This document shows, in pieces, positions 21 through 27,417 of a stretch of 29,565 bases of DNA. The position numbers and the translations under genes were made by a program. The notes below the pieces were generated by a model that saw only the letters and a program-made list of their open reading frames with translations, ran no database searches and was not told where the DNA came from. The stretch is taken from the IMG/VR virus record IMGVR_UViG_3300023214_000450, positions 1-29,565 of that record; one strand, 5' to 3'. The DNA comes from a virus (taxonomy: Duplodnaviria > Caudoviricetes). Positions within the stretch are counted from its first letter, which is position 1. The number at the start of each line of letters is the position of its first letter.

Positions 21-110
<90 letters not shown>

Positions 111-420: not shown

Positions 421-1506
421 TCAGATTAGCCCCACGATCCGGTTAGTTGCGACGGTGCCTAAGCGAAATAGCGTCTGCCGCTGGGCCGAGGCCAGCCGCC
501 ATGAGCGGGCGAGGTCTGACTCCCAGGGGGTCACGATGAGTTCAAACGAGCCATCGGTCAGGCGGCGGAACATAACGGCTGTGTCGGCATACTCAAATCC
601 ACCCTGCGCGGACGTGGGCAGATTCATCCGCTCCATCTTGTTGTTTCCGTGCCACGTCAATCGTCTGTTGTCCCATACGCGCGCGCCGCTGCGGAGGACG
701 GGCTCACCGATCGTTAGATTATGCGGATAGTCGTACTGGTCGAACACAAAGCCGAAGAACCGATGGCCCCCGCGCGGCAGTTCCAGTTGGTTGCTCGATC
801 CGCCCTGAAGGGCCTCACCGTGGACCCACATGGCCGCGTAATCGGCCGGGTTGATGGCTCCGTTCGCGATAGCGAGCCTGAACAGGGGTAGCGCGGCAGC
901 GGCGACGGGTGCCGGCGCTGCTACAGGCTGCGCTTCCTGCTCGATCTCTGGCGGCGGCGGCTGGGCCTGGCGCAGAGCGGTATAGGCTGCAAGCAAGTCG
1001 TCGGTGAGAGCGGTCGTTCCAAAACGCGCCTTGTCAAAGGCGGCATCGGCATCGGCACGAGGAATGCTCTGCTGCACCCATGCCACCTCCGTGTTCACGC
1101 TAAAGCCACGGCTCGTAAGGTTCGCCGAGCCGACCAGCGTGCTGCATGTTTGGGCATTGCGGCCAAAGACATAAAGCTTGGGGTGAAAGGCACGCTGCGG
1201 CATAAGCGAACCCTGCGCCAGTCTCTGCGCGCCGGAGACGAAAATCGTGGCGTTCGCTAGCGCGTGCCAATGCTGCAATGCCTGTGGTTCGGTGAGGCCG
1301 AAATCGAAGGATGTAACAAGAGTCTTGGGCATCGCCGCGAACGCGGCAGGACCCACAGCGTTCGCGACGGCGGACAGCAGTATGTTTGCGCCGCCGAGCG
1401 TGACGTAAGCTGAGGCCACGCGAATATCGACCGCCCCCGCCGTGACGATATCGACGAGAGCGTTGCGCATGCTCGCCGGTTCCGCGGCATTCTGGACGAT
1501 CAGCAC
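421..1506 (-). CDS. Phospholipase D-family nuclease (BfiI/NgoAVII-like restriction endonuclease architecture), 361 aa
   Basis: Single PLD catalytic motif FHPKLYVFG...VGSANLTSRG...NTE, then a Pro/Ala linker and a separate C-terminal domain. GTG start overlaps the upstream stop by 7 nt. Confidence 0.8.
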   Translation of the reverse strand: MLIVQNAAEPASMRNALVDIVTAGAVDIRVASAYVTLGGANILLSAVANAVGPAAFAAMPKTLVTSFDFGLTEPQALQHWHALANATIFVSGAQRLAQGSLMPQRAFHPKLYVFGRNAQTCSTLVGSANLTSRGFSVNTEVAWVQQSIPRADADAAFDKARFGTTALTDDLLAAYTALRQAQPPPPEIEQEAQPVAAPAPVAAAALPLFRLAIANGAINPADYAAMWVHGEALQGGSSNQLELPRGGHRFFGFVFDQYDYPHNLTIGEPVLRSGARVWDNRRLTWHGNNKMERMNLPTSAQGGFEYADTAVMFRRLTDGSFELIVTPWESDLARSWRLASAQRQTLFRLGTVATNRIVGLI

Positions 1507-4500
1507 GCCGGTGCCTGCGCCCCGCTCCCGCTGCCGCCGGTCGACGCGGTGGATGTTCCGGCAAGAGCAGACCGGGCCAGCGTTTCAAGCTGCACCAGGA
1601 GCGGCGATCCTTCGAGCAGCGCGCGCAATTTGCGGCGGCGCGCTGACAGTGCTTTGACGGGGTCGGCCAGATAGGGGTCGGTCGTGCAGTGGCCCTCGGC
1701 AAGTACGGCAATGTCCTTCGCGAGGGCCGCGATCTTCCGGTGATCGCCGTTTCCGGCATCGTATGTAGGCATCATCCTGTACGGCAGCGTGTGGAGATGC
1801 CGTTCGCCGAAATCTCCCTTCGGGTTGAACGCGAGGGTGGCGTTGGTGAGCGCCACGCTGTTAAGCATGCCGATTTGGTACCAGGCCTCGTCTGCGTCGG
1901 CCACGACCTTCCAGTAGAGGGTCTGATCGACGACAAGATCCTGGGCCTGCGCCACCGGAAGGCACGCCGCGCAGATTATCTTTCCGCCAGCCCCGGCCAG
2001 AATGAGATGCCCGGCCGCCCAGAACACCTGTTTGGACAGCTTGCCTCGTTCGTCGATGCGCTGCTGGAGCGTTTTTCCTTTCCCGACCGTTTTGAGCTTC
2101 TGGTTGATCGCGTCGAAGCGCCGCGCGGTCTGGGTAAATCCCTGGCGGCGGATTTCAGTCTCGTCGAGAATGCTCCATGTCCCGCCGGCCGCGCGCAGCG
2201 CCGGCAAAGCCATGGGCGCGCGGTGGGCACCGAGAACGAATGGCAGCAGGTTTTCCGACTGCGCCATGCGATAGATGAAGCGCGGCGCGACATGGCCGGG
2301 AAATCGCTCGGTCGCCATCTCCTTGGCGGATTTGATCGTAAACCCCCAAGCGGAAGCGCGGGTCGGCGTATCGACACGGTATTCCGGCCCAGCATTCTGG
2401 ACGATGTCCACGCATACCGCCGTGCGCGGCATAAGATCGGCCCCCTGCTGCGGCAGGTCTGCCCCGCCGCTGGCCACGGCCGCACCGCCTCCCTTTTCGA
2501 GCACCCACGCGCTGCGCGCCGACCCGATGGTGCGAACTGAAAAGCCCGCGGCAGCCAGCCCCGCATCGGTCGCGACGAAGCCGGCGAACGCGTTCTGCGG
2601 AAGCCCGGTCGTGTCCGCTCGCTTGTGTCCGACCAGCGCCGCGCCGGGATACTTGAAGGTGCCGGGCGCTACCTGCCAGACTTCGGCGATGTCGAACGGC
2701 ACGGGACGTTCGCTTGCCAGGAAGTCATGCCGCCGCAGCCGCTCGTGATGGTTTCCGTTCAGCACAGTGCCCGGCACGAGACAGGCGACGCAGGCATCCG
2801 GCCCGAGATAGCGGTCGATGGCGTGAAGCAGGTGCATCGTCCCCAGCTCAAGATGAAGGAAGGACTGTCCCGCCGGCTGGATGCCGTAGAGTTTCGCCCT
2901 GCCTTTCAGAAGGTCCCGGTAGGGATTGTCAGCCAATCCGCTCATGGCGAGCCACGGCGGATTAGACACAAGCCCGTTGAAGTGGCCGGTCAGGAGTCCC
3001 GGCCTGTATGTATTACGCAGGATGAATGCCCAAATGCCGTTGCGCCCGGCGACCGCCAGTTCGGCCATGCGATGCGCCAGCGGGAAAAGCGCGTCGGAAA
3101 GCTGTTTGTAGAGCTCCGGCGGCAATGTGATCCCGAACGCCTCGATCGTGCCATCGAGAAAGCTGTCCGCGTCGGCCTTGCTGAAGCCCGCGATGGTCCC
3201 GCACCGCTGAGCGTCGCGCGCTTCGTCGTAAGCCCAGTCCACGATCCGGTCGAAAAACTCCCGGTAGGCCGGCTGCACCAGCGCCGTCGGCAGTTGGATG
3301 GTCGTGCCGTCGAGGGAAACCGGAATGGTGTCGCTTTCGCCGACCAAGGGAACTGACGCGGAGACCGGCGTGACGGCGAACAGCGAGTCCGCATGATAGA
3401 CCGGGATGACGATTGGTTTCGTCGCCGCCTTGATCTCGGCCGACAGGCTGACGACCCATGTCGCCTTCGCGAGGCTGACGGCCAGCGGGTCGATATCAAA
3501 GCCGGTCGCAACGTCCTCAAGCTGTTCGATCGCGGCAAAGCCGAACCGGTCCCGCGTCGCCTTTATGATTTCCGCGATCATCGTGCCGGACCCGCAGCAC
3601 ATATCGACGATCCGGGGGCTTTCCCCTGTCGGGAGGCCGTCGATGCAACGGTCGGCAAGCAGGCGGGCGAGCCAGTGCGGGGTCCATTCCTGGCCGAGCA
3701 GCTTGCGCTGGCTACGCCGGGCGAGCTGCGCCATGAGGCGGCCGAACAGATCCTCTTCAGGATACCAGCTGAAATTGTAAGCATAGAGATCGCGCTGGAG
3801 GTCGCGGGCCACCGCGACGAGCCGGTCGATGTAGGACGGGCCGAGAAGCCAGCCGAAATAGTCCTGCTCGACCACATTCTCCAGCTGGAATTTGTTGCGG
3901 AAGAATGCGCCGTTCAGCATCGCCTTCAGCTCTTCGTCCGTGCTGAGCAGCGCTTGGGCCGTCAGCACGTTTGCGCTCAGCAGCCGCGCGAGCAGCGTCA
4001 CATAGGCTTCATCGACATACGCGGCGGTCCGGAAGGTGCCCGCTGGCCCCTCCAGGTGATCGACGAAGCGGGACCAGAGGTCGGTCGCCAGGCTCGCCGA
4101 CGGATCGGCCGCGCGCCCCTCGTTCACCAACAGCGACAAAGGCCCCACGCTGCTCTTATGCGCGGCCGAGTCCATGCCAAGATCGGAAGCGAGGAATTCG
4201 GCGCGCAGGGGCCGGGACTGTTCGCGCGCGAGATGCTTCCTGATGAAAGCGCCGAGCTGTTCGGCGGACAGGACGCTGTCATCGGCCAGCGTCAGTTCTT
4301 CAACGACGACGAGCGTGATATCGGCAGCGGTGGAGGCGGACGGGTCGACACCCGGCGCAAGCACGGCATCGTAGGCGTACCATTCGACCGTGTCGGACAG
4401 CACGCCCCGGACCGTGGAAACCGGCATGCCTGCGCGGACCAGTCCCGCCGCCTGCTCCTGCACCTGCGCGTAGCCGGTGTCGCGCTTGGCCGTGTTGCGC

Positions 4501-4766
4501 AGGTCGGATTCGTATTCGATCGTGGTCGATCCCACGAGATTGTCTATGAACCGGGACGCGGCCTTGCCCGATCTCGTGCCGACCTTGGTGTGCGCCTCGG
4601 TCCCTTCAGTGTAGTTGTTGATCCAGGTTTCATGCGCGGTGTCGGGGAACATGAGCCGCAACCGCCCCTGGAACTCGCTGCGCAGGACCGCCTCAACACG
4701 GCCCGCGTCCCGCAGCATGCGGCAGCGACCGATGGTTTCGCGAATGCGGGCAAGGTCAGCTGTCAT
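1500..4766 (-). CDS. Type IIG-like fused restriction nuclease / N6-adenine methyltransferase, about 1088 aa
   Basis: N-terminal PD-(D/E)xK-like segment (FIDN...IEYESD...AQVQE...GVLSDTVEW); methyltransferase motifs GQEWTP, DMCCGSG, GFDID and NPPW; long C-terminal putative target-recognition region. Start moved to ATG 4766, which has an AAAGGA RBS. Confidence 0.8.
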   Translation of the reverse strand: MTADLARIRETIGRCRMLRDAGRVEAVLRSEFQGRLRLMFPDTAHETWINNYTEGTEAHTKVGTRSGKAASRFIDNLVGSTTIEYESDLRNTAKRDTGYAQVQEQAAGLVRAGMPVSTVRGVLSDTVEWYAYDAVLAPGVDPSASTAADITLVVVEELTLADDSVLSAEQLGAFIRKHLAREQSRPLRAEFLASDLGMDSAAHKSSVGPLSLLVNEGRAADPSASLATDLWSRFVDHLEGPAGTFRTAAYVDEAYVTLLARLLSANVLTAQALLSTDEELKAMLNGAFFRNKFQLENVVEQDYFGWLLGPSYIDRLVAVARDLQRDLYAYNFSWYPEEDLFGRLMAQLARRSQRKLLGQEWTPHWLARLLADRCIDGLPTGESPRIVDMCCGSGTMIAEIIKATRDRFGFAAIEQLEDVATGFDIDPLAVSLAKATWVVSLSAEIKAATKPIVIPVYHADSLFAVTPVSASVPLVGESDTIPVSLDGTTIQLPTALVQPAYREFFDRIVDWAYDEARDAQRCGTIAGFSKADADSFLDGTIEAFGITLPPELYKQLSDALFPLAHRMAELAVAGRNGIWAFILRNTYRPGLLTGHFNGLVSNPPWLAMSGLADNPYRDLLKGRAKLYGIQPAGQSFLHLELGTMHLLHAIDRYLGPDACVACLVPGTVLNGNHHERLRRHDFLASERPVPFDIAEVWQVAPGTFKYPGAALVGHKRADTTGLPQNAFAGFVATDAGLAAAGFSVRTIGSARSAWVLEKGGGAAVASGGADLPQQGADLMPRTAVCVDIVQNAGPEYRVDTPTRASAWGFTIKSAKEMATERFPGHVAPRFIYRMAQSENLLPFVLGAHRAPMALPALRAAGGTWSILDETEIRRQGFTQTARRFDAINQKLKTVGKGKTLQQRIDERGKLSKQVFWAAGHLILAGAGGKIICAACLPVAQAQDLVVDQTLYWKVVADADEAWYQIGMLNSVALTNATLAFNPKGDFGERHLHTLPYRMMPTYDAGNGDHRKIAALAKDIAVLAEGHCTTDPYLADPVKALSARRRKLRALLEGSPLLVQLETLARSALAGTSTASTGGSGSGAQAPAC

Positions 4767-6885
4767 GGGTGGTCCTTTGTCGGGCGGCGCACGCGGCCTC
4801 GAGCCGGGAGTCGATATGGCGCGCCGCCTCTTTGAGGTCGCTTCCATCGCTGCCGGGCAACGCAGCGGCCAGAATGATCATGTTGATCTGGTGCTGGGCC
4901 GACGGCACGGCCGCGGCCAGCTGCTGTCCGAGCGTGGCGAGTCTTTCGCAGTCCCGGTCGGACAATGGCGGAATCGGCACCTGGCGGATGTGCGTCGCTT
5001 CGAGTTTGAGCGCGCCGCCGCCAAGCGGCGTGCCGGCGGATTCCATCGCTGCCCGGCACCAGCTACTGTGGAACAGGGCGTAGAGCGCGTGAACTGTCCA
5101 TCGCCTCTCTTCCGCCCACAGGGTTGAAAAATTGGCATCGATCAGGATGGGCGGCTGGGTATTGAGCGCGACGGCCGGTGTCCCGTGATTGATCCGCGGC
5201 GTGAAGATCACGGGCAGGTGGCGCGCGGTGAAGGCTGGCAACATGTACCAGAAGCGCGGAACGTCGCGGCCGTTGGCCGGCCGGCGGACATTGGTGCGTA
5301 CCGCCGATAGGTCGGGAATGAACCGCGCCGGCTCTTTGGGGTCCGGCGCATACCGGGCGGCGAGCCGCACGAACGATGCCAGTTCGGGCGGCATGACGCG
5401 CGGCACGGACATACCCCGCCTGCGGTAAGCCTCCGCAGCTTCAGTGACGGCCGGCTGGTCTTCCGGCAGGACCCAGTCCGACAGATCGAGCACGCGTGTT
5501 GCCGGAAGGTAGCCGCTCGCAAAGGACTCCATATCCGCCTGGCGATGGAGAACGGGCCGCAGCGCCGCCGCCGGAACACGGAGACGCATGTTCTGAAAGC
5601 TCTGCGACGCTTCGACGGTAACGGTTTCGTTCTCATCCTCACCGGCAAGCGTCACATAGAAAAACCGGTTGCAACCCGAACGCAGGCCCTGGCTGACCCG
5701 GATGCCCGCCCGTTCAAGCGTCTGGAGACGAACCGGCGTCGCGCCGGGCGGCAGCATGTCGCGCAATCCTTCCGGCATCGCCGCCGGCCGTGCCTCCGCG
5801 ACTGAAAAGAGCGGCAGCGCGTCGCGCCGGTTTTCGGCGTTCTGAAACCAGCTCTTGCGTCCAAGGCGCTGCTCCAGTGTTCGCCATTCCTCATCCAGCG
5901 CAAACTGGCGGCTCTCGATGCTCGGAACTTCCCGGTTCGCCGCGCTCGCCCAGGTTGCGAAATCCCGCTCTGGTTCCGGCCCGGGGAAGGCGCTCCCTAC
6001 CAGGGACCCTCCGCCCGCAGCCGCCGGCGTCACTTGCAGCCAGTGTGCGGCAGGCAAGGACGACCGATCCGACACGGGCGCTTGCGCCTCGTCCCATGAG
6101 AGCCGCCGCGCGATCACAAGATGCGTTCGCACCAGCGCGTCCGAAAACCAGCCGGGCTGCGTATCGGCGACGATGAATTCAAGGCGAAACGCCCGCAGCA
6201 GCACGTAGCGCACGACATCGGCGTAATCGCGCGAGCGCCAAGTGGCGGGAACGACGAGGGCCAGGCGGCCGCCCGGACGCGTCAGCAGGGCGGACAGGAG
6301 CCAGGCCGGCACCGAAAGATCGGCAAGGCCCGAATATCCTTCAACCAGTGCCTGCCAGAGCGCGCGTTCGCCGCCGGTCACGCGCGCGTTCACAATCGCG
6401 GACAGGCCCCGGCGCACGTCTCCGACACCGGCACCGTTCCCGTTTTGCGACTGGTATCTCACATACGGGGGATTGGTAATGACAAGATCGTAGCCGGGCG
6501 CATCCATCGCAGCGACGATCGCTGGATCAAAGGCGCTGCCCGTGACAATGCGGGCAGCGGCGACGGCACCGTCCGCCTGCAACGCCGCGGTCCTACGGCC
6601 GCAGAAGGCGGACGTCTCAGGGTCGAGCTCGATGCCGTCCAGCCGGTCGAGCCGGGCGTCTCGCGCCCGCGCCGTCAATGCGGCCGCGTCGAGAAGGTCG
6701 CCGTGACCGGCCATGGGATCGATCACGGCGCGCGCATCGGGGTCGAGCGCGATGTGCGCCAGCAGTGTCCCTAGCGGCAATCCGGTGAAGAACTGCCCCA
6801 GGCGCTTCCGCTGGGCGGGCGGCAGGCCTTCCTCAAAGGAGCGCGCCGAGGATCTGATCGCGCTGACCGCGTCAGTCGCCGGCAC
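4756..6885 (-). CDS. N6-adenine DNA methyltransferase, gamma class (Eco57I/TaqI-like), about 709 aa
   Basis: Motifs RKRLGQFFT, DPMAGHG, GIELD and DLVITNPPY, followed by a C-terminal TRD-like region. Start inferred at GTG 6885 with a GGGAG RBS. Confidence 0.85.
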   Translation of the reverse strand: MPATDAVSAIRSSARSFEEGLPPAQRKRLGQFFTGLPLGTLLAHIALDPDARAVIDPMAGHGDLLDAAALTARARDARLDRLDGIELDPETSAFCGRRTAALQADGAVAAARIVTGSAFDPAIVAAMDAPGYDLVITNPPYVRYQSQNGNGAGVGDVRRGLSAIVNARVTGGERALWQALVEGYSGLADLSVPAWLLSALLTRPGGRLALVVPATWRSRDYADVVRYVLLRAFRLEFIVADTQPGWFSDALVRTHLVIARRLSWDEAQAPVSDRSSLPAAHWLQVTPAAAGGGSLVGSAFPGPEPERDFATWASAANREVPSIESRQFALDEEWRTLEQRLGRKSWFQNAENRRDALPLFSVAEARPAAMPEGLRDMLPPGATPVRLQTLERAGIRVSQGLRSGCNRFFYVTLAGEDENETVTVEASQSFQNMRLRVPAAALRPVLHRQADMESFASGYLPATRVLDLSDWVLPEDQPAVTEAAEAYRRRGMSVPRVMPPELASFVRLAARYAPDPKEPARFIPDLSAVRTNVRRPANGRDVPRFWYMLPAFTARHLPVIFTPRINHGTPAVALNTQPPILIDANFSTLWAEERRWTVHALYALFHSSWCRAAMESAGTPLGGGALKLEATHIRQVPIPPLSDRDCERLATLGQQLAAAVPSAQHQINMIILAAALPGSDGSDLKEAARHIDSRLEAACAARQRTTHDS

Positions 6886-8749
6886 TGCATAAAACTCCCG
6901 GCAGCGTCTGTTCTGCATACCAGCGATAGAAGACATCAGCGTCGAGCGGGACTTGCTGATGATGGCTGAGGAAATGCGTGACGAGGCGGGAATACAGCCT
7001 CTGTGCCGTCGCTTCGGCCGGATCATGCGCGGCGGTCGCCGCGCGGTGAAGGGCCGTCGCGACGGTCCATACACAGTCGTCCGCCCCGGCCTTGCTTTCG
7101 ATCGTGGCCTCGGCCTTGCGGCGCGGCCCCAACAGGAGCACGGGGTCGCCGCGCACGGCCCCTTCGGTCGTGACCTGCTTGAAGCTGCCCTGCTTCTTGT
7201 CGAGAACCCCCGCATATTCCACGTCGAAGCCGGCATCTTGGTAGGCGCGCTGCAAGGCGTTCCAGACTTCGGCGGACGCGGAATGAAACACCATCGTGGC
7301 TTTGCCGGACGGTTTTAATATCCGGCGGGCCTCGCTGAATGACCGGGTCAGCAATTCCCTGTACTCGTCGATGGACTTGCCCTGGTCCGGGCTCACGATG
7401 GCTTCGTCCGTGCGGTCGGTAAACGTCTTGAGCCAAGCCTCGTTTATGAAACTGAGTTCGGCATAGGGTATGTTGGCCCCGAAGGGCGGGTCCGTGAACA
7501 CATAGTCGATGCTCTCGGATGGCAGCGCGACATCGCAACTGGAACCGTGGACGACTTCGACCTTGCCGCTGCCGCCGTGAATGGTCTCGAACGCCTGTGC
7601 AATTGTCGTCAGCTTGCGCCGCAATCCTGCAAAAAAGTTCTTCTCGACCGGCAGGCCGCTGACATACAGCACGCCGGGCTGGGCGCTGGTGACGACCAGG
7701 TCCTTCTGACCGGACTTCGCCACAACGCGCGTCATGATCGTGCCGTGCGCCGCGTTGTAGCTCAGCAGCCAGAAGCGAAGCCCCTCGCGGAGCGCGCCGC
7801 GATAGGATTCCACACGCTCCCACATGCGGGCGAATACGATGAGATTGCGCCGGGTGTAGAAATGATGAACGTGCGTAATGCCCTGATGGTAGCCCTTCCG
7901 GTAGAGGTCGCCCCAGGGGATCAGCGCCTGCGGCACGCATGACGGGATCGGCTCGGCCTCGATCTTCTTGATAAGCGTCAGGTCGGCGGCTGTGGCCGGA
8001 CGCGACCAGCGTTTTTTTCCGGTCGAACCATAGACGCGGGCCATCGCCCGCCCGCGCAGGTCGCGCTGTTCGCCCAATACGTCGTCACGTTCCTGCACCG
8101 TCACCCGTTGCACACCGTCCAGCGGCTCTTCATGGCGGCATTTCGGGCAGGAGAAGGTGGAGGAAATCTCCGCCGGATCGAGCGCGACGCACGCATCCCA
8201 CAGGGTGACGACGCCCCGGCAAGCAGGGCAGCGCAGCTTGTCGCTCCAGATCAGATGACGAAGAGAGCCTTTCGCGCCGGAGGGGTCGCGCGCCTCGTAC
8301 ATCCAGCCGTCTTCGCTCTCGCCTGCGGCCAATACGTCTTCGGCCGCCTTCCTGAACGCGGCGGGATCGGGCGGATTGGTCAGGGTCCGGCCGACAAACG
8401 AGCCGAGCGCGCCCAGCTCATAGAGAACGGCGTTGCGGGCACCCCATTGCACGTTAAGGCCGAGGCGGGCCGCTTCGGCGCGCAGTTCCGCGGTCGGCCG
8501 CTCGCACAGCAACGCGGCAAGGCCGGTCGTCCCGCTGCCCCCGAACCCATCAAACACGGTGTCGCCGGGTTTGGTGTGGGCGGCGATATAAAGAGCGATT
8601 GCTTCTGGCGATATCTTTGTTGGATATGGAAAGGCGCCGTAGAGGGTGCCAGTCCTCTTCGCAGCTAAGGGCCGCCTGTATAGCGCATTTAGAGCGGCCT
8701 CCGACATCGAATGGTCCGATTTGGATAGCTCGGGCTGAATTTGAAGCAT
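6872..8749 (-). CDS. Zn-ribbon-containing amino-DNA methyltransferase (COG1743/PglXI-like), 625 aa
   Basis: N-terminal YPTKI...DGFGGSGTTG (SAM binding), CPAC and CPKC pairs, distant DYVFTDPPF catalytic motif. Alternative start at ATG 8707. Confidence 0.8.
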   Translation of the reverse strand: MLQIQPELSKSDHSMSEAALNALYRRPLAAKRTGTLYGAFPYPTKISPEAIALYIAAHTKPGDTVFDGFGGSGTTGLAALLCERPTAELRAEAARLGLNVQWGARNAVLYELGALGSFVGRTLTNPPDPAAFRKAAEDVLAAGESEDGWMYEARDPSGAKGSLRHLIWSDKLRCPACRGVVTLWDACVALDPAEISSTFSCPKCRHEEPLDGVQRVTVQERDDVLGEQRDLRGRAMARVYGSTGKKRWSRPATAADLTLIKKIEAEPIPSCVPQALIPWGDLYRKGYHQGITHVHHFYTRRNLIVFARMWERVESYRGALREGLRFWLLSYNAAHGTIMTRVVAKSGQKDLVVTSAQPGVLYVSGLPVEKNFFAGLRRKLTTIAQAFETIHGGSGKVEVVHGSSCDVALPSESIDYVFTDPPFGANIPYAELSFINEAWLKTFTDRTDEAIVSPDQGKSIDEYRELLTRSFSEARRILKPSGKATMVFHSASAEVWNALQRAYQDAGFDVEYAGVLDKKQGSFKQVTTEGAVRGDPVLLLGPRRKAEATIESKAGADDCVWTVATALHRAATAAHDPAEATAQRLYSRLVTHFLSHHQQVPLDADVFYRWYAEQTLPGVLCSAGD

Positions 8750-8782
8750 GCGGTAACTGTCCCCTGAATTCTTCTTTTTTTG

Positions 8783-9001
8783 TTACGTCAGTTGCGACGA
8801 GGTAGGTTGTTTTTCGGACGCAGGACTCTGTGCTGCCCGCACCGGCTGCCGATGCCGGCGCAGATACTCATCTATCGCGCGCCTTACCACCCAGGAGACC
8901 GACACATCATCCTTGTTGGCCAGCATGTTCAGGGCGTCGAAGTCTCCGGACGTTACGCTCACGGTGACCCGGGGACCGAGTTTCTTAGGTCGACGATTCA
9001 T
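8783..9001 (-). CDS. Ribbon-helix-helix (CopG-like) transcriptional regulator, 72 aa
   Basis: RVTVSV strand, then helix DALNMLA, then VSVSWVVRRAIDEYL; GGAGG RBS; first gene of the methyltransferase operon. Confidence 0.8.
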   Translation of the reverse strand: MNRRPKKLGPRVTVSVTSGDFDALNMLANKDDVSVSWVVRRAIDEYLRRHRQPVRAAQSPASEKQPTSSQLT

Positions 9002-9012
9002 GGCGCCCTCCG

Positions 9013-9071
9013 AATGTTCCGCTAATGTTCACCCTAGCGATTCGCACGGTGATTGCAACAGAGTGCATCAC
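9013..9071 (-). promoter_or_regulatory. Putative sigma70 promoter and operator of the RHH-methyltransferase-PLD operon
   Basis: Minus-strand TTGCAA (9053-9058), 16-nt spacer, TAGGGT (9031-9036). Imperfect palindrome GTGATTGCA-acagag-TGCATCAC (9049-9071) overlaps the -35. Direct repeat AATGTTC at 9013 and 9024. Confidence 0.5.
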
Positions 9072-9538
9072 TTTGACTCATCATTCTTCGGATTGTAGCT
9101 GCACGCGGTGGCAGCAGGCAACGGACGGCTACCGCGCTCTGAAGTCTCTCGATTTCGACACAACCAACTCATCTGCTCTTGCCACTGAGCCGGGGCAGGC
9201 TCTCGCAGCGTCTCTAGCGTGAGGCATGCGCGCTGACGCCCGTCCAGGATCGCCTCGACGATGTCCGGCGCGAGCAGCGTCAGGCGCAGGACACGGGTCA
9301 AATATGGTGCAGCGATCCGCTCGCGCTTAGCCAGTTCGGCGATGTTGGCGAACTCGCCCGTCTCAAGCATGCGCTTCCAGCGGAAGGCGCGCGCCAGCGC
9401 CTTGACCAGCGAAGTGTCGGTCCGCCGCGAGTGCGTGGCACCCTCTGGCAGCTGCATCTCCTTTCGTCCGCCGCGTTTCACGACGCGGAACGGGATGTGG
9501 AGCGTGACAGTCTCGGGGATCGGCATGCCGCGTGTCAT
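9068..9538 (-). CDS. Recombinase-associated hypothetical protein with HTH-like segment, 156 aa
   Basis: Coupled to the recombinase stop by an ATGA overlap; contains ALARAFRWKRMLETGEFANIAELAKRE and LRLTLLAPDIVEAILDGRQ, which I recall from genes downstream of such recombinases. Confidence 0.7.
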   Translation of the reverse strand: MTRGMPIPETVTLHIPFRVVKRGGRKEMQLPEGATHSRRTDTSLVKALARAFRWKRMLETGEFANIAELAKRERIAAPYLTRVLRLTLLAPDIVEAILDGRQRACLTLETLREPAPAQWQEQMSWLCRNRETSERGSRPLPAATACSYNPKNDESK

Positions 9539-10860
9539 GCGGCTTCTCCGATCCCGCCGGACAGCATCTCGCGCGCGAGGCCGCTCAGCCCATCGACGCG
9601 CAGCCGGACGTTTAACCCGTCTGTGCGCATGTCGACGCGCTCAACCAGCAATGTCACGATGCGTGCCTGCTCGGCGGGGAACAGTTCGTCCCACAGCGGA
9701 TCGAGCTGCTGCAGGGCTGCGCGGCCGTCGGCTTCGGAGACGTCGTCGGCGTGGACGCGTGCAGCTTTCCACGTCCCCGCCACGATCTCCGGCTGGCGGA
9801 ATACGGCACGGAGTTGGTCAATGACCGCGGCCTCGATCTCCCCTGCTGGCACGCGGCCCACGGGGCATGACCCGGCACCGTGCTTCAGCACTGTCTGGCT
9901 GACGTAGTAGCGGTAGAGCCTGTCGCCCTTGCGAGTATGGGTCGGCGAGAACGCGGCGCCATCGGGACCGAAGAGTAGTCCCTTCAGCAGCGCGGGCGTG
10001 TCGGCGCGAGTCCGGGCGGCGCGCTTGCGGGGGCTTTCCTGCAGGATGGCGTGGACGCGATCCCACGCTTCGCGGTCGATGATCGCGTCGTGCTCGCCGG
10101 GATAGCTTTCGCCTTTGTGGACCGCCTCACCGATGTAGGCGCGGTTGCTGAGCATCCGGTAGATGTATTTCTTGTCGATTCGGTTGCCGCGCGGCGTCCG
10201 GATTCCGCGCGTGCCAACCTCCCGCGCCAGTTCCGTGCAGGACCCGATCTCGAGGAAGCGGGCGAAGATCCAGCGCACATGCGCAGCGGTATCTTCGTCG
10301 ACCACCAGCTTGCGGTTCTCGACGCGGTAGCCGTAGGGCGGCACACCGCCCATCCACATTCCCTTCTTCCGGCTCGCGGCGACCTTGTCGCGGATGCGCT
10401 CGGCCGTCACCTCGCGCTCGAACTGGGCGAAGGACAGCAGGATGTTCAGCGTCAGCCGCCCCATGGAGGTGGTGGTGTTGAAGGACTGCGTGACCGAGAC
10501 GAACGTCACGCCGTTCCGGTCGAACACCTCGACCAGCTTGGCGAAGTCGGCGAGCGAGCGGCTGAGGCGGTCGATCTTGTAGACCACCACCACGTCGACG
10601 AGGCCGTCCTCGATATCTTCCACCAGCCGCTTCAATCCAGGGCGTTCCAGCGTGCCGCCCGAGATGCCGCCGTCGTCATACTGATCGCGGACGAGCACCC
10701 AACCCTCGGACCGCTGGCTGGCTATGTACGCCTCGCAGGCCTCTCGCTGGGCGTGGAGCGAGTTGAACTCCTGCTCCAGCCCTTCCTCGGAGGATTTGCG
10801 GGTGTAGACCGCGCAGCGCAGCTTGCGGACGACCTTGGTTTTTTCGGGCGGCTTTGTCAT
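9535..10860 (-). CDS. Large serine recombinase (resolvase plus recombinase domains), about 441 aa
   Basis: CAVYTRKSS catalytic Ser motif, YDDGGISGGTLERPGL, VVVYKIDRLSRS, FAQFERE and GGVPPYGY. Start ATG 10860 overlaps the upstream stop. Confidence 0.93.
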   Translation of the reverse strand: MTKPPEKTKVVRKLRCAVYTRKSSEEGLEQEFNSLHAQREACEAYIASQRSEGWVLVRDQYDDGGISGGTLERPGLKRLVEDIEDGLVDVVVVYKIDRLSRSLADFAKLVEVFDRNGVTFVSVTQSFNTTTSMGRLTLNILLSFAQFEREVTAERIRDKVAASRKKGMWMGGVPPYGYRVENRKLVVDEDTAAHVRWIFARFLEIGSCTELAREVGTRGIRTPRGNRIDKKYIYRMLSNRAYIGEAVHKGESYPGEHDAIIDREAWDRVHAILQESPRKRAARTRADTPALLKGLLFGPDGAAFSPTHTRKGDRLYRYYVSQTVLKHGAGSCPVGRVPAGEIEAAVIDQLRAVFRQPEIVAGTWKAARVHADDVSEADGRAALQQLDPLWDELFPAEQARIVTLLVERVDMRTDGLNVRLRVDGLSGLAREMLSGGIGEAA

Positions 10861-11312
10861 GTCCGCCCCCTGTGGTTCTTGAGGCCGAAGAACACCCAGC
10901 CGTTCCAGCGCGTGCCGGTGATCGCGCGCGCGATGGCCGACAGCGACTTGTACGGCCGACCTTGCCACTCAAAACCGTCGGCGGTGACGGTGACGATCTG
11001 CTCGACGCCCTGCCATTCTCGCAGCAGCCGCGTGCCGGTGATCGGGCGGTCACGGTCGGCTCGGATGCCGCGCTTCCTCTTGTCGCCGCCATCCAGTTCC
11101 TCGCCCAGCCGCTCAAGGCGCCTGATCGTCTCCGGCTTCAGCCCGCCATAGGCCAGTTCCTGGATGCGGTAGGCGAGCCTGCTTTCCAGATAGCGGCGGT
11201 TGAACGGCGGCGGCTCGCTGTCGAACAGCTCGCGCCACTGCGCCTTCAGCTCCGGCGTTGTCGCGGTCTTGAGCGCGGCCAGGCGCGCGGGGATGGGATC
11301 GTGGGTCGTCAT
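10857..11312 (-). CDS. DUF2924-like protein, about 151 aa
   Basis: RLAYRIQELAYGGL, GTRLLREWQG and YKSLSAIARAITGTRWNGWVFFGL; directly upstream of the serine recombinase. Confidence 0.85.
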   Translation of the reverse strand: MTTHDPIPARLAALKTATTPELKAQWRELFDSEPPPFNRRYLESRLAYRIQELAYGGLKPETIRRLERLGEELDGGDKRKRGIRADRDRPITGTRLLREWQGVEQIVTVTADGFEWQGRPYKSLSAIARAITGTRWNGWVFFGLKNHRGRT

Positions 11313-11512
11313 GCGGTTCTCCGGCGAGTTGGAGTTGCATGACGGCATGCGCTCGCCGGAGAGTGTAGGCGAATTTCTCCAGTATCGTCAGAAGGTTCGC
11401 CGCGCTCGCGCAGCCGCAGCCGGACCAGCCCGAACGCCAGCAGGCCGCACAGTTCAGTGCGGCGTTCGGCAGGGGTCATCCGGTCGGGCGGCAGGGGATT
11501 GGGGCGTTTCAT
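11309..11512 (-). CDS. Small hypothetical protein, 67 aa
   Basis: ATGA overlap with the DUF2924-like gene; first gene of the leftward integration operon. Confidence 0.6.
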   Translation of the reverse strand: MKRPNPLPPDRMTPAERRTELCGLLAFGLVRLRLRERGEPSDDTGEIRLHSPASACRHATPTRRRTA

Positions 11513-18918: not shown

Positions 18919-19664
18919 TCCACGACGCCTATGAACTCAAGCGGATCGTGCGGGCCCAACGCGAGCGGTTCTGGTGCTCCGACCTGCTCGGAGCGGCGGA
19001 GTTCGCGCCGATCTATTTCTTCGACGATCAGGCCGCCTTCGATGGCGATATCGTCGACCGCGCGATGACCCGGGTCTTTACCGGTCCGCTTCGGCTGCCG
19101 CATCCGTCCGTGATCTTCGAGGTGCGCGAGCAGCGCGCGTCTCCCTCGGGCCTCATCGTCTGCGCCCGCGCCGACGGCGACATCGTCGAGGCCACGTTCC
19201 TCATGCGCAAGCGGGCGCCGCGCGGCTGGACGGATTGCCTGGTGCGGATCTGGATTCATCCGGACGGCAAGGCGGAGATCGAGGGCAACCCGGCCGAGCG
19301 ACACGACGAGACGGTCCGTGGCCACGGCGAGGTCGCCGCCGGCATCGTCTGGCGCGCGCTGACCATTCTCGGCGCGTCCCCGGACATCCGCGACCGCAAG
19401 GTGTCGCTCGCGAAACGGTCCCGCCTGTCCCGCGAGGGCGTGCGCGGATGGGTCTGGCGCCAGGTCGCCATCGATCCGGCGCGCCTGCGGGCGGCGACGC
19501 CGCCGCAGGGCGGCAGTCACGCCAGCCCGCGCTGGCACATCCGCCGCGGTCACTGGCGGCAGCTCGCCGACGGGCGTCGGGTCTTCGTCCGCCAGTGCGA
19601 GGTGGGCGATCCGACCCGCGGCGGGATCGTCAAGGATTACGCAGTGGAGGCACCCCATTCATGA
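18915..19664 (+). CDS. Hypothetical phage protein, about 249 aa
   Basis: ATGA overlaps at both ends; C-terminal SPRWHIRRGHWR motif. Confidence 0.7.
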   Translation: MIHDAYELKRIVRAQRERFWCSDLLGAAEFAPIYFFDDQAAFDGDIVDRAMTRVFTGPLRLPHPSVIFEVREQRASPSGLIVCARADGDIVEATFLMRKRAPRGWTDCLVRIWIHPDGKAEIEGNPAERHDETVRGHGEVAAGIVWRALTILGASPDIRDRKVSLAKRSRLSREGVRGWVWRQVAIDPARLRAATPPQGGSHASPRWHIRRGHWRQLADGRRVFVRQCEVGDPTRGGIVKDYAVEAPHS

Positions 19665-20980
19665 CCGAGTTCACCCCATCCTCCACGCAGGCCGCCGCGA
19701 TCCGCGAGATCAGGGAGTGGTTCGAGACCCGCACGGAGCAGCAGCAGGTGTTCCGCCTGTTCGGCTATGCCGGGTCCGGCAAGACCACCGTGCTGAAGTT
19801 CGCGCTCGACGAACTCGGCCTCTCGCCCCACCGCAGCGCGAAGGACGGCCGCTGCGTGCCCGGCGTCGTCACCGCCACCTTTACCGGCAAGGCCGCGCTG
19901 GTGCTGACCCGCAAGGGCACGCCCGCGCGCACCATTCACAGCCTGATCTACTCGGTGATCGAGTCGACCGAGGAGGAGATCGAGGAAGCCGCCCGGAAGA
20001 TCGCGGCGGCTGAGCGCGACGCGCGTCGCCTTACCGGGTTCGCGCGCACCACGGCCGATGCCGCGATCGAGGCCATGCGCCAGGGGCTCTCGGCGATGAA
20101 GCACCCGCGCTTCGCCCTGAACCCGCAGAGCGACGCCGCGGACGCCCGGCTGATCGTGCTCGACGAGGTGTCGATGGTCGGCGAGGAGATGGCGCGCGAT
20201 CTGATGAGCTTCGGCAAGCCGATCCTCGTGCTCGGCGATCCCGGCCAGCTGCCGCCGATCCGGGGCGAAGGCGCCTTCACCCGCGACGAGCCGGACGTGA
20301 TGCTGACCGAGATCCACCGCCAGGCGGCCGAGAGCGCGATCATCCGTCTCGCGACCATGGCGCGGGAGGGTCGGCCCATCGGCTTCGGCGTCTACGACGA
20401 CCATGTCGCGAAGCTCCGCAAGGGCGACATCACGCCGGAACAGGCCCTGCGCGGCGGCCAGCTGATCTGCGGGCTGAACGCCACGCGGCTGCAGATCAAC
20501 AACGCCATGCGCGCGGCTGCAGGGCTCGGCGGGACCTGGCTGCCCACGGGACCGTCCGAGAAGATCATCTGCCTGAAGAACCAGAACGATCTGGGGCTGA
20601 TCAACGGGATGTTCGTGACGCTCGAGGACATCGTCGACGAGGGCAGCCTCTACTTCTCCGCCGTCGTCCACGACGAGGACGGACGCCACATCGGCGAGCC
20701 CTATGAGGACGGGCGTCCGGGCCGGCTGCGCATCTACAAGGGGCACTTCGAGGACCATCTCGCCTACGACGACAAGCGTCACGACCGCGACTACAAGGAG
20801 AAGCGTCTGCTGACCGAGGCGACCTTCGGCTGGGCGATCACCGCCCACAAGGCGCAGGGCTCGCAGTGGGAGAACGTGATCGTCTGGGACGACGGGCTGG
20901 GCCGAAGCGAGATCGACCGCCGCCGCTGGCTCTACACCGCGATCACCCGGGCCGAGCGCGGTCTCGTCCTTCTGGCCTGA
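19661..20980 (+). CDS. RecD/Dda-like SF1B ATP-dependent DNA helicase, about 439 aa
   Basis: GYAGSGKTT, TFTGKAA, TIHSLIY, LDEVSMV, GDPGQLPPI, LTEIHRQ, AITAHKAQGSQW and LYTAITRA; GGAGG RBS before ATG 19661. Confidence 0.92.
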   Translation: MTEFTPSSTQAAAIREIREWFETRTEQQQVFRLFGYAGSGKTTVLKFALDELGLSPHRSAKDGRCVPGVVTATFTGKAALVLTRKGTPARTIHSLIYSVIESTEEEIEEAARKIAAAERDARRLTGFARTTADAAIEAMRQGLSAMKHPRFALNPQSDAADARLIVLDEVSMVGEEMARDLMSFGKPILVLGDPGQLPPIRGEGAFTRDEPDVMLTEIHRQAAESAIIRLATMAREGRPIGFGVYDDHVAKLRKGDITPEQALRGGQLICGLNATRLQINNAMRAAAGLGGTWLPTGPSEKIICLKNQNDLGLINGMFVTLEDIVDEGSLYFSAVVHDEDGRHIGEPYEDGRPGRLRIYKGHFEDHLAYDDKRHDRDYKEKRLLTEATFGWAITAHKAQGSQWENVIVWDDGLGRSEIDRRRWLYTAITRAERGLVLLA

Positions 20981-20988
20981 GGGGCGCG

Positions 20989-23574
20989 ATGATCGACCTC
21001 AACGACATCGTGGTCCCGAAGACCCGGCACGATCTGGCGGTCGTGAAGGAGCGGCTCGCCTGCACGGCCGCCGACTGGCTGCCGGGGCTTTTCCCCGAGG
21101 CCAGGCTCGCGCGGGACCGTCGCTCCTTGCGCTGCGCAGACCTCTCCGGGCGCCCGCCACGCAAGGAGGGCTCCTGCACCATCCATCTCGACGGGCCCTA
21201 TGCAGGCTGGGGCTTCGACTACGCCACCGGCGAGCGGGCCGGTCCCATCGACCTGATCGCGCAGGCGACCGGACTCTGCGACGGCGCGCTCTTCGACGAG
21301 GCAGCGCGGCTCGCGGGGATGGAACACCCTGCGTTGCAACCCACGATGGCGTCGCCCATGCGCGCTCGCCCCGACCACTCGGCCGAGATCGCGCGTCTGG
21401 TCGGTGGGGCCGTGCCGATCGCAGGCACGCCGGGCGAGACCTACCTGCGCGCTCGCAGGCTGTCGGATCCCGGATCGCCCGACCTTCTGTTCCATCCCGA
21501 CTTGCCGGACTTCGACCGCTGCCGCGGCTGGCCCGGCCTGATCGCGATCCTGCGGCTGCCGGGCGGGGAGCGCGCGCCGGGTATCCACCGCACCTTCCTG
21601 CTCGACGACGGCAGCGCCAAGGCGCCCCCGGGCAAGAAGATGCTCGGCAGCGTGAAGGATGCCGTGGTCCGGCTCTTCCCGATGCCCGAGGACGGCCACA
21701 TCGGCATCGCCGAGGGCATCGAGACGGCGCTCGCCGCGCACGCGCTCTTCGGCACACCGGTCTGGGCGGCGCTGTCGGCGGACGGTCTGGCGCGGTTGCA
21801 GTGGCCCGAGGGCACCCGCCGCGTAACCATCTACGCCGATGCCGGGGACGCAGGTCGCCAGGCGGCCGCGACGCTCTCCGATCGCCTCAACCGGGCCGAC
21901 ATCCCGAACGAGATCGTCGGACCGCTGCATGGCGACGACTTCAACGACGACCTTCTGCGCGGCACCCGCGCCGAGGATTACGCGCGACTGGCTGACACCA
22001 CAGCGGCGGCGCAGGACGGGGATCCGGCACAGCCCGAGACGGCAACACCTGTCGTTGCGTCTGCTGACGATCCCGCAACGCTGATCGCCGCGGCCGAGGC
22101 GCTGACCAACCCGCCCGAGTTCGAAGCCCTGTCCATGTTGCTCGGACGCATCGCGCTGGCGAAGCTCAACCCGCTGCCCGAGCGGCAGGTCATCGCGCGG
22201 ATCAAGTCCGCGACAGGCATCGGCATGTCGGTCCTGACCCAGCAGCTGGCAGAGCTCCGCCGCCGCGTGAACGCCACCGGCGACCCGCATGCGCCGATCC
22301 CGAAGCCCGCCTGGTTCAGGCGCCTGCGGCTCGATCTCGCGGGCGCGCCCGAGCGCAACGAGGCCAACGTCATCGTCGCGCTGACCTCCGATCCGGCCTT
22401 CGCGGGCGTTCTCGCCTTCGACGAGTTCGGGCAGGAGATCGTCGTGCGCCAGCCGTTGCCTTGGGATTGTGCCGCCGCCTCCCTCCCGCGTCCCTGGGAG
22501 GACGCCGACGACATCCGCACCGCCGAATGGCTGCAACTCCGCGGCATCAACGTGGCGCCGGTGGTCGTGAGCCGTGCCGTCGGCGCCGTCGCCCGCGAGC
22601 TGCGCATCCATCCCGTCCGAGACTGGCTTGGCACCCTGACATGGGACGGTACGCCCCGGATCGAGACCTGGACCAGCACGTATCTCGGCGCCGAGCCCAC
22701 CGCGTTCAATCACACCATCGGCGCGCTCTGGCTGATCTCGGCCGTCGCCCGCATCTACCGCCCCGGCGTGAAAGCCGACCACATGCTGATCCTGGAGGGG
22801 CCGCAGGGCGCACGCAAATCCACCGCGATCAAGGTGCTCGCGGGCGAGGAATGGTTCACCGACGAGCTGCCGGAGCTCGGCTCGAAGGACGCCGCACTGC
22901 ACATGCAGGGTGTCTGGATCGTGGAGATCGGCGAACTCGACGCCATCGGCCGCGCCGAGGTCTCGCGCATCAAGGCCTTCCTGACCCGCACCACCGACCG
23001 CTTCCGCCCGCCCTACGGCCGCTACACCGTCGAGGTGCCTCGGCAGTGCGTCTTCGCCGGCACCGTGAACCCCGACACCTATCTGCGCGACGAGACCGGC
23101 AACCGCCGCTTCTGGCCGCTCCGATGCGGCACCATAGACATCGCGGCGCTAGCGCGCGACCGGCACCAGCTCTGGGCCGAGGCCGCCCACCGCTTCCGCG
23201 CCGGTGCAATCTGGTGGATCGACGATCCGGCGCTGCTGGCCGAAGCCCGCGAGGAACAGGACCGCCGCTACCAGTCCGACGCCTGGGACGACCTCATCGA
23301 ACACTGGCTGATCCACGAGGTCCGCACCGTTTCCGACGGCTTCCCCGACTATGGCAACTCCCGCACCGAGAGCGTTCCGCGCCCGGAGCCGCTGAGGGAC
23401 GTGTCGGTCGGCGAGATCCTCGAGGAAGCGATAGGGCTCGAACCCGCGAGGTGGACCCGCGGCGACCAGATGCGCGTGTCGGCCTACCTCAAGGCCAACG
23501 GCTGGGAGCGATACCGGCGGCGCGACGAGGGCGGGCGCGAGGCGCCGCGGGAATGGCGGTATCGGAGGGCATAG
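20989..23574 (+). CDS. Primase-helicase: Toprim domain fused to a virulence-associated E (VapE)-type ATPase, about 861 aa
   Basis: Toprim motifs IAEGIETAL and IYADAGDAG; VapE motifs LEGPQGARKST, WIVEIGELD, RPPYGR, FAGTVN and DETGNRRFWP. Confidence 0.9.
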   Translation: MIDLNDIVVPKTRHDLAVVKERLACTAADWLPGLFPEARLARDRRSLRCADLSGRPPRKEGSCTIHLDGPYAGWGFDYATGERAGPIDLIAQATGLCDGALFDEAARLAGMEHPALQPTMASPMRARPDHSAEIARLVGGAVPIAGTPGETYLRARRLSDPGSPDLLFHPDLPDFDRCRGWPGLIAILRLPGGERAPGIHRTFLLDDGSAKAPPGKKMLGSVKDAVVRLFPMPEDGHIGIAEGIETALAAHALFGTPVWAALSADGLARLQWPEGTRRVTIYADAGDAGRQAAATLSDRLNRADIPNEIVGPLHGDDFNDDLLRGTRAEDYARLADTTAAAQDGDPAQPETATPVVASADDPATLIAAAEALTNPPEFEALSMLLGRIALAKLNPLPERQVIARIKSATGIGMSVLTQQLAELRRRVNATGDPHAPIPKPAWFRRLRLDLAGAPERNEANVIVALTSDPAFAGVLAFDEFGQEIVVRQPLPWDCAAASLPRPWEDADDIRTAEWLQLRGINVAPVVVSRAVGAVARELRIHPVRDWLGTLTWDGTPRIETWTSTYLGAEPTAFNHTIGALWLISAVARIYRPGVKADHMLILEGPQGARKSTAIKVLAGEEWFTDELPELGSKDAALHMQGVWIVEIGELDAIGRAEVSRIKAFLTRTTDRFRPPYGRYTVEVPRQCVFAGTVNPDTYLRDETGNRRFWPLRCGTIDIAALARDRHQLWAEAAHRFRAGAIWWIDDPALLAEAREEQDRRYQSDAWDDLIEHWLIHEVRTVSDGFPDYGNSRTESVPRPEPLRDVSVGEILEEAIGLEPARWTRGDQMRVSAYLKANGWERYRRRDEGGREAPREWRYRRA

Positions 23575-23608: not shown

Positions 23609-24373
23609 CTATCCGAAAACCAGCCCGCCATCCACGATCAGGTTCTGACCGGTGACCGACCGCGCCCATGGCGACGCGAAGAACAGGACCGCATCGGCCA
23701 GCTCCTCCGGCGTCGTCGCGCGACCGAGTGGGGTCTGCCCGGCGACGATGTCGAATACCGCATCGGGTGTCGCGGCGCTGGCATCGGTGGTGCGCAGCAA
23801 TCCGCCCGAGACCATGTTGACCGTGACGCCGAGAGGGCCAAGCTCCTTTGCCGCGGTGCGCGTGAAGGCCAGGAGCGCACCCTTGGCGGCCGTATAGTCG
23901 TGATAGGGCACCACCGGGTTCTGCAAAAGGTTCGTGCCGATGGTCACGACACGCCCGAAACCTCGCGCCTCGAAATGCAGGCGCAGGGGCTGAATGCAGT
24001 TGAGCGCGCCCCCGACCGCCGTTTCCGTCTGTCGCGCGATCTCGGTCCAGGTCAGGCGCTCGAGATGCGCCCGTGCATCGCCGTTAAAAGAGAAGTCGGC
24101 GAGTGCGTTGTGCACGAGAACGTCGGGCGGGCCGAGCCTCTCGACGATCTCGTCGACCATCCGGACGACCGCCTGCGCATCGGTCACGTCGGCGACAAAC
24201 GCTGCGACGCGCGGGCCGAGATCAGACGCGAGCGCGTCAGCCGCCTCCTTGCTCCTTCGGCAGTTGATCGCGACCTGCGCCCCCTCTCGCGCAAAGGCAC
24301 GCGCGATTGCGGCGCCGAGGCCGCGGCCTCCGCCAGTAATCAGTACAGTTTGTTCGTTCAGTGGCAGGGTCAT
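23609..24373 (-). CDS. Short-chain dehydrogenase/reductase (FabG-like; resembles thiamine-regulon OarX), about 254 aa
   Basis: TGGGRGLG cofactor motif, YTAAK catalytic motif, VTGQNLIVDGG. ATG 24373 overlaps the natural tenA stop and has an AAGGA RBS. Confidence 0.85.
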   Translation of the reverse strand: MTLPLNEQTVLITGGGRGLGAAIARAFAREGAQVAINCRRSKEAADALASDLGPRVAAFVADVTDAQAVVRMVDEIVERLGPPDVLVHNALADFSFNGDARAHLERLTWTEIARQTETAVGGALNCIQPLRLHFEARGFGRVVTIGTNLLQNPVVPYHDYTAAKGALLAFTRTAAKELGPLGVTVNMVSGGLLRTTDASAATPDAVFDIVAGQTPLGRATTPEELADAVLFFASPWARSVTGQNLIVDGGLVFG

Positions 24374-27252: not shown

Positions 27253-27255
27253 ATC

Positions 27256-27279
27256 TCTCCCCGCTCAGACGCAGGGAGA
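27256..27279 (-). promoter_or_regulatory. RBS-sequestering hairpin (riboswitch expression platform)
   Basis: Minus-strand TCTCCCTGC-gtctga-GCGGGGAGA pairs over the thiM Shine-Dalgarno sequence. Confidence 0.7.
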
Positions 27280-27325
27280 CGCGATACGGGGAACTGATAG
27301 GCGGAGCCGCCTGTTGCTCGTCGCA

Positions 27326-27414: not shown

Positions 27415-27417
27415 CGC

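Follow-up and report, generated by a model that had tools for sequence, protein, structure and literature searches.

A putative restriction-modification operon combining one methylase pair with two alternative nucleases

Gene content of the operon

We analyzed a five-gene operon located in a stretch of DNA of 29,565 nucleotides (nt), hereafter the window, which comprises positions 1 to 29,565 of the IMG/VR virus record IMGVR_UViG_3300023214_000450. This 29.6-kb virus-type record starts at a tRNA-Ser gene, and a serine recombinase module and phage replication genes lie further right. The operon consists of five co-oriented minus-strand open reading frames (ORFs) that sit between tRNA-Ser(TGA) and the large serine recombinase. 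A first-pass annotation had described five co-oriented genes with intact catalytic motifs and enzyme-gene overlaps of 14, 11 and 7 nt, and the ORFs and alignments confirm this description when the M1 start is taken as 8707 and the M2 and PLD starts as GTG. Its assignment of the genes to a cargo slot also holds, and we regard them as a conserved, methylation-based defence-type cassette in a tRNA-Ser-integrated element. The features are listed below, with protein lengths in amino acids (aa).

8783..9001, minus strand: RHH (CopG-like) protein, 72 aa (Pfam RHH_1, E 6e-7); likely the operon regulator, and optional
6872..8707, minus strand: M1 methylase, 611 aa, or 625 aa if a possible upstream start, ATG 8749, is used (PADLOC PglXI profile, DPPF, Cys motifs)
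4756..6885, minus strand: M2 methylase, 709 aa, GTG start at 6885 (Pfam Eco57I/N6_Mtase, NPPY)
1500..4766, minus strand: RM, a type IIG fusion of nuclease, methylase and target recognition domain (TRD), 1088 aa (PADLOC REase_MTase_IIG, fold, NPPW)
421..1506, minus strand: PLD-B3 nuclease, 361 aa, GTG start at 1506 (HxK motif, predicted BfiI fold)
21..110, plus strand: tRNA-Ser(TGA) (ARAGORN, Rfam); likely the integration site bounding the element
9068..11348, minus strand: DUF2924 protein, large serine recombinase and ParB-like small protein; carrier context, outside the system

M1 is an alpha-order amino-methyltransferase with motif I at residue 53, a Zn-finger insert/TRD, two CxxC motifs and DPPF at residue 406. 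It matches the PADLOC PglXI profile with an E-value of 7e-133 and is 30% identical over 632 columns to a PglXI from a type 3 BREX system, the insert alone being 31% identical over 193 aa (E 8e-24). The C-terminal ~220 aa of PglXI are missing from M1, as is the C-terminal helix-turn-helix (HTH) region. In the M1 alignment, the four cysteines are present in 101 of 101 rows and DPPF in 100 of 101. M2 is classified by profile as a gamma-class adenine methyltransferase, with NPPY at residue 138 and a C-terminal TRD, and its profile matches include M.BseCI (E 3e-14), M.TaqI and BpuSI. Its NPPY motif is retained in 106 of 107 aligned rows, and its QGLRxGxN and DANF motifs in all 107.

RM combines a nuclease, a gamma methylase and a TRD in a single chain and matches the PADLOC REase_MTase_IIG profile (E 3e-40). 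The structural model of RM (pLDDT 84) yields Foldseek matches to BrxX, DrdV, MmeI and BpuSI, and RM is 24% identical to a protein annotated 'restriction endonuclease BseRI'. Its predicted nuclease site comprises E25/E57/D75/E84/E86, and NPPW lies at residue 602; D75 and E84 are found in all 85 rows that cover them, and NPPW in 87 of 87.

The fifth protein, PLD-B3, consists of a single HxK PLD domain (residues 1-185) followed by a B3-like DNA-reading domain (about 221-361). The best Foldseek match of its model (pLDDT 92) is BfiI (2c1l, E 6e-12), and R.NgoAVII (4rct) is also matched. With VIA-align, the PLD domain superimposes on the BfiI nuclease domain (2c1l) with Z 15.6 over 161 aligned residues (rmsd 3.0), and the C-terminal domain on the BfiI recognition domain (3zi5) with Z 10.3 over 132 residues (rmsd 3.6). 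The fold comparison of the C-terminal domain was made among Foldseek's top 1000 chains, with the known modification-sensor domains SRA, EVE, wH and iEndoIII considered; its best match among the listed rows is B3. An Atlas lead for this domain, PF20731 at 0.80, falls below the reliable range, and single-sequence searches of the Protein Data Bank returned nothing useful. H108, K110, S127 and N129 are present in 98 of 98 rows of the PLD alignment. Judging from the model, PLD-B3 would have its own DNA reader, unlike DISARM DrmC.

Configurations and inheritance of the enzyme set

Anchored on PLD, a scan of genome contigs returned 68 loci. All four enzymes are present in 31 of them and M1-M2-PLD in 24; in 5 others PLD stands alone with long flanks, one of these having the B3 domain only, and the remaining 8 are partial or contig-limited. 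Outside the 31 and the 24, one of the 68 loci has M1 and M2 on another contig and one has M1 together with a diverged gamma methylase. The record titles name Proteobacteria, Actinobacteria, Acidobacteria, Planctomycetes, Verrucomicrobia, Nitrospinota and others. M1 and M2 lie nearby in 55 of the 68 loci. Since M2 is rare, occurring in 1 of 301, 3 of 401 and 1 of 401 sampled genomes (centres included), the link between PLD and the M1-M2 pair is specific.

All 24 genomes with M1-M2-PLD were searched for an RM orthologue and none has one; five of them gave distant IIG matches only (best E 3e-47). M1 and M2 retain their catalytic and TRD motifs in these RM-less loci, and PLD is the sole recurring nuclease partner there. 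One of the 24 (L054, from G014) is an unpublished genome that also contributes a row to several alignments, and no conclusion rests on it. An RM-anchored metagenome scan of the best 80 of 209 relatives gave 59 loci, namely 31 four-gene loci, 15 with M1-M2-RM without PLD, of which 4 are flanked on either side by 4 kb or more, and 13 truncated ones. Likewise, an M2-anchored scan of viral records gave 9 loci (1 four-gene, 5 M1-M2-RM, 1 truncated and 2 distant), one of which duplicates a metagenome locus. All locus counts include near-identical relatives. Copies of the four-gene set can be followed down to about 35-50% identity, which indicates that the grouping is not due to chance.

A fixed five-part system is not supported, since both nucleases and the RHH gene are optional. 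By tblastn, with a 72-aa query that can miss distant copies, RHH was detected ahead of M1 in 52 of 77 loci with RM as compared with 1 of 24 loci without it. The 14/11/7 overlap pattern is shared by 29 of 63 related loci with all four enzyme genes, mostly close relatives.

We compared the inheritance of the four enzymes across 22 dereplicated four-gene loci. The identity matrices of M1, M2 and RM correlate with one another at 0.92-0.95, whereas those of PLD correlate with the others at only 0.32-0.40; M1 itself correlates with RM (0.94) and not with PLD (0.40). The low PLD values are not an effect of protein length, since 350-column slices of RM still give 0.92-0.95. RM accepts the M1+M2 tree in the approximately unbiased (AU) test (p 0.10) and has 16 of 19 splits in common with it; PLD rejects this tree with a log-likelihood difference of 651 and only 5 of 19 splits shared. 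The AU test used 2000 replicates, which is below the recommended number, but the large likelihood gap makes the PLD rejection independent of that. PLD is found beside M1-M2 in eight arrangements, on varying strands, that include co-oriented, convergent and divergent placements and positions before RM or kilobases away, and loci of the three- and four-gene forms intermix on the M2 tree among the rows listed. Taken together, the shared inheritance and the mismatched PLD tree show that the core is M1-M2 with RM and that PLD is a repeatedly exchanged module. Natural fusions of M1 and M2, with M2 behind M1, were found in seven protein clusters; these fusions (P0277-P0283) are 1261-1319 aa long and retain both catalytic motifs.

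Catalytic and predicted reading residues are nearly invariant in all four proteins, as judged from near-full-length ORFs after broken and truncated ones had been filtered out. The predicted reading loops in particular are near-invariant in M2, RM and PLD, which fits one conserved target and swappability.

These data bear on a suggestion of the first-pass annotation that the operon represents two nested systems with different targets, an Eco57I-like M2+RM system inside an M1+PLD system. The gene order in the window is what such nesting would produce, and M1 is broken both in a PLD-less locus (L073) and, together with PLD, in the decayed locus L024:2920-10960. In the latter, M1 carries two frameshifts, and RM is shortened and continues in frame into a PLD that has lost its first 42 residues and its catalytic Glu, although this is one case only. 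However, RM-less loci retain an intact M2, and nearly all PLD-less loci an intact M1. Among the surveyed loci, every M1+PLD locus had a gamma methylase as well, and every well-flanked M2+RM locus had M1. The history that M1 and M2 share with RM, the exchange of PLD, the correlation of M1 with RM rather than PLD and the M1-M2 fusions all count against nesting, which we consider improbable.

Interpretation and rival explanations

The three natural configurations, with both nucleases, with RM only and with PLD only, are most simply accounted for by one methylase pair that marks both strands and shelters either or both nucleases. We favour this account, under which the operon is likely a type II restriction-modification (R-M) system, at about even odds. 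Speaking for it are the tie of PLD to a rare methylase pair, the intact M1 and M2 in genomes with no RM orthologue, the M1-M2-RM loci without PLD, the near-invariant reading loops, and the placement of PLD, despite its separate history, beside M1-M2 in eight arrangements; the joint decay of M1 and PLD in L024 fits as well, as a single case. Type IIG enzymes such as BpuSI and BseRI methylate one strand and need companions, and dimers of the BfiI type read DNA with their B3 arms and cut it without metal. M1 and M2 are predicted to modify one strand each of a single asymmetric site, and RM and PLD-B3 would each cut DNA that lacks the M1/M2 mark. Under this account the nucleases would share a target or have overlapping ones, both would be active, and the system would be of benefit against phages. 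With two readers and two chemistries, one dependent on Mg and S-adenosylmethionine (SAM) and the other metal-free, a single inhibitor or base change would presumably not disarm both nucleases. PLD could move between loci because any locus with M1-M2 would already be immune, and its conserved specificity would permit such hops.

Several observations weigh against the shelter of two nucleases by one pair. A profile comparison of M2 with RM aligned only the SAM-binding motif, with no alignment of the TRDs, and thus lends nothing to a shared target. An attempt to derive the target site from k-mers depleted in the flanking DNA (463, 276 and 104 kb around the three configurations) showed only general palindrome avoidance and weak non-palindromic signals and was rejected. 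Although no M1-M2 locus with enough DNA lacked both nucleases, two of the three surveys were nuclease-anchored and hence blind to nuclease-free loci. Where PLD is the sole nuclease, its correlation with M1 and M2 is still 0.30-0.40, as compared with 0.76 between M1 and M2, and in the PLD-less locus L073 it is M1 that is frameshifted while M2 and RM are intact. Finally, RM lacks the canonical Lys of the PD-(D/E)xK motif, having an invariant D75-x8-E84-x-E86 where distant IIG relatives have ExK. The Glu in place of Lys lowers the expectation that RM is an active nuclease, though it would not exclude such activity, and variant PD-(D/E)xK sites exist.

This substitution, and the presence of BrxX/PglX among the top fold matches of RM, would be expected if RM were a BrxX-like methylase or sensor without a working nuclease and PLD were the sole cutter, possibly in one complex with it. 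Five acidic residues of the N-terminal domain are nevertheless essentially invariant, as expected of a metal site, and ExE is the active motif of BamHI-type enzymes. Moreover, M1-M2-RM loci exist without PLD, and PLD often lies on the opposite strand or kilobases away, so that we regard a sensor role for RM as very improbable.

The wider family of PLD-B3 provides further evidence against the shelter model. A profile of the reader domain matched 450 representatives (clustered at 50%); the majority of the 150 listed are PLD fusions of ~350 aa or fragments thereof, and some are stand-alone proteins of ~140 aa with different C-arm loops. PLDs with the same arm (WHGxxxMER) and intact HxK/SxN/E adjoin unrelated methylation systems in genomes, namely an MmeI-like cluster (L056), a type III R-M system (L070) and a distant IIG enzyme (L038), while L067, whose ends are shortened, has no methylase. 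Neither M1 nor M2 was found in these four genomes, three of which are metagenome-assembled. A plain restriction enzyme sheltered by M1 and M2 alone should not persist in such genomes. In the plasmid sequences themselves, further PLD loci likewise carry MmeI-like methylases (L002, L003 and L143) or a distant IIG enzyme (L004). More distant PLD-B3 proteins, seen in plasmid records only, adjoin a methylase within a DISARM operon (L140:7935-9068), an MmeI-helicase-GIY-YIG trio (L141:7992-9005) and an SNF2/type III operon (L142:about 7900-8980, a gene not in the record's gene table).

All of this would be consistent with M1-M2-RM being the R-M system and PLD-B3 a conditional plug-in backup layer, like the END nucleases or the partner-dependent R.NgoAVII. 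PLD-B3 might then be silent on ordinary DNA and be triggered by modified phage DNA, by a partner or by a phage anti-restriction protein; we treat this role as a real possibility, though a less likely one than the shelter model. The direct adjacency of the wider family to methylase genes of DISARM, MmeI-like, type III and IIG systems, the bare B3 protein after PglXI in a type 3 BREX locus, the same-arm PLDs in four genomes without M1 and M2, and the uncoupling of the PLD tree from the core all favour this role. Left unexplained are the 55 of 68 loci in which PLD lies beside a rare methylase pair and the 24 genomes with intact M1-M2-PLD and no RM. No helicase partner of the SF2 N/H kind and no BREX-type neighbour recurs around the loci. 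In addition, the B3 domains of BfiI, EcoRII and NgoAVII are established readers of specific unmodified sequences. Precedents can be cited for such a role. According to a passage of PMC12191111, END nucleases, which join a BfiI-like PLD to an inactive EndoIII, can act without a cognate methylase and do so on hypermodified phages, although their sensor is iEndoIII and not B3. PMC4267654 states that R.NgoAVII requires the helicase-like N protein and ATP, and no such gene is present in the operon or recurs around the loci.

A broader and doubtful extension is that PLD-B3 proteins form a family, so far unrecognised, of second nucleases that plug into unrelated methylation defences, stay silent on normal DNA and act once the resident system has been evaded or its methylase inhibited. 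The defences so covered would be M1-M2-IIG, MmeI-like, type III and DISARM, with the bare reader in BREX type 3. If this extension were true, B3 would be a conditional sensor and not a plain sequence reader, and M1-M2 would be a BREX-3-related methylase module redeployed outside that system.

Relation to known systems and to the carrier element

The combination of RM with two methylases is a known layout. The passages of PMC3874165 and PMC3185434 that we cite describe BpuSI and BseRI as IIG enzymes with two further methylases, so that the three methylase domains, which the first-pass annotation took as part of the novelty, are not new. In BseRI the companion methylases are fused, non-gamma then gamma, in the same order as in the M1-M2 fusions seen here, although this likeness rests on published descriptions of gene layout and not on sequence comparison. 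In BpuSI a IIG enzyme with nuclease, gamma methylase and specificity parts shares one operon with two methylases, as in M1-M2-RM, but its partner is an m5C enzyme, whereas M1 is a PglXI-type Zn-finger enzyme. RM is modelled as sharing the fold of BpuSI, MmeI and DrdV. No second nuclease appears in those same passages on BpuSI and BseRI; here, PLD-B3 is added.

PLD-B3 is a BfiI design, as the relevant part of PMC4081073 describes it, and it shares with the type IIS enzymes BfiI and BmrI the two-domain fold, the length and the HxK...SxN...E site. Identity to these enzymes is nonetheless about 12-14%, the methylase classes differ, and, unlike BfiI and BmrI, PLD-B3 often has a IIG enzyme beside it and belongs to a family that is also met next to unrelated methylation systems. 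The BfiI system has two methylases, and the three-gene form M1-M2-PLD thus has the BfiI layout. The R protein of NgoAVII and CglI has the same PLD plus B3 architecture (4rct). The END nucleases and SauUSI end in EndoIII or helicase-SRA domains, whereas the C-terminal domain here is B3-like and PLD-B3 is mostly tied to a specific methylase pair; the strong methylase link led us to reject an END or type IV identity.

M1 is homologous to PglXI/BrxXI of BREX type 3, including the four-cysteine insert TRD. PMC12839542 reports that homologues of the BrxXI insert are confined to BREX; by its sequence, M1 is such a homologue, contrary to that statement. BrxC, PglZ, BrxHII and BrxA are absent here, M1 lacks the C-terminal HTH region, and we rejected a BREX identity because none of the five operon genes matches BrxC, PglZ or BrxHII. 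DISARM and MANTIS (Gao_RL) also combine a PLD nuclease with an adenine methylase, and one distant PLD-B3 lies inside a DISARM operon. However, their DrmA/B/D helicases and AAA+ ATPase are absent from the operon here, and the DrmC model score is 16 bits against a cut-off of 133; DISARM was rejected as an identity on the latter ground and on the lack of DrmA/DrmB helicases, and MANTIS was considered and rejected as well. The first-pass annotation was therefore right that helicase, ATPase and PglZ partners are missing from the five operon genes and that the operon is neither BREX nor DISARM; the helicases at 18974-23574, outside the operon, match phage replication families. That it recognised no named system in the architecture also stands, with no match in the literature searched. 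The cited parts of the MANTIS report (bioRxiv 10.64898/2026.09.23.753747) and of an EcoSal review (PMC12707154) cover other systems. Searches of open-access papers found no account of an operon of IIG and PLD-B3, although such proteins may figure in the auxiliary-effector tables of PMC12839542, and REBASE may already list the genes as putative type II/IIG systems.

Restriction-modification normally pairs one methylase set with one nuclease. Each module here would work like a known enzyme class, and what appears to be new is the combination of a methylase pair with two alternative nucleases; relative to the known layout of RM with two methylases, the new feature is the detachable second nuclease. 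The three natural versions on a conserved pair (IIG only, PLD only and both) offer a direct test of nuclease redundancy against anti-restriction proteins and base modifications. The operon should yield a new type IIG specificity and a new metal-independent BfiI-type specificity, and it places a PglXI-type methylase of BREX type 3 in a small stand-alone operon in which target and chemistry are measurable without the rest of BREX. If PLD is conditional, it would represent a new backup layer common to several defence classes.

With respect to the carrier, the GC content of the operon is 65%, as compared with 69% in the remaining element, and the serine recombinase is missing from many four-gene loci. 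A promoter and terminator scan of the operon gave counts no higher than chance, and the repeats around the operon ends are short two-copy matches only, which we regard as chance. A tRNA-Ser gene lies ~300-400 bp beyond PLD in 13 of 36 related loci scanned (L001, L005-L007, L009, L010, L013, L021, L023, L025, L044, L087 and L103), with four anticodons (TGA, CGA, GGA and GCT) represented at the cassette end, and it seems that any tRNA-Ser isoacceptor can serve the carrier element. The phage-like replication region of the window also holds, on the opposite strand, a TPP riboswitch (27317-27416) with an SDR gene and thiM-, thiE- and thiD-like genes behind it (23609-27416, minus strand), a thiamine-salvage cargo in a virus-type record.

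A few observations concern the relatives of PLD-B3 and their neighbours. In a BREX type 3 locus, PglXI is immediately followed by a 143-aa B3-like protein (L072:9977-10408) that stands alone and is related to the PLD reader. Similar proteins of 140-150 aa occur elsewhere; the stand-alone protein had no plasmid match. There was no E. coli genome match at the DNA level, and none in phage records with PLD. Related copies of a large gene are convergent after PLD in seven loci (L012:11254-13872 and six related ones), and the copy scanned matches the PADLOC candidate PDC-S06 with an E-value of 2e-192; L074:10200-12400, between RM and PLD, gives a more distant match to PDC-S06. A 61%-identical PLD homologue, P0094, is found in Pseudomonas aeruginosa genomes (63 contigs), which are a possible source of existing methylome data.

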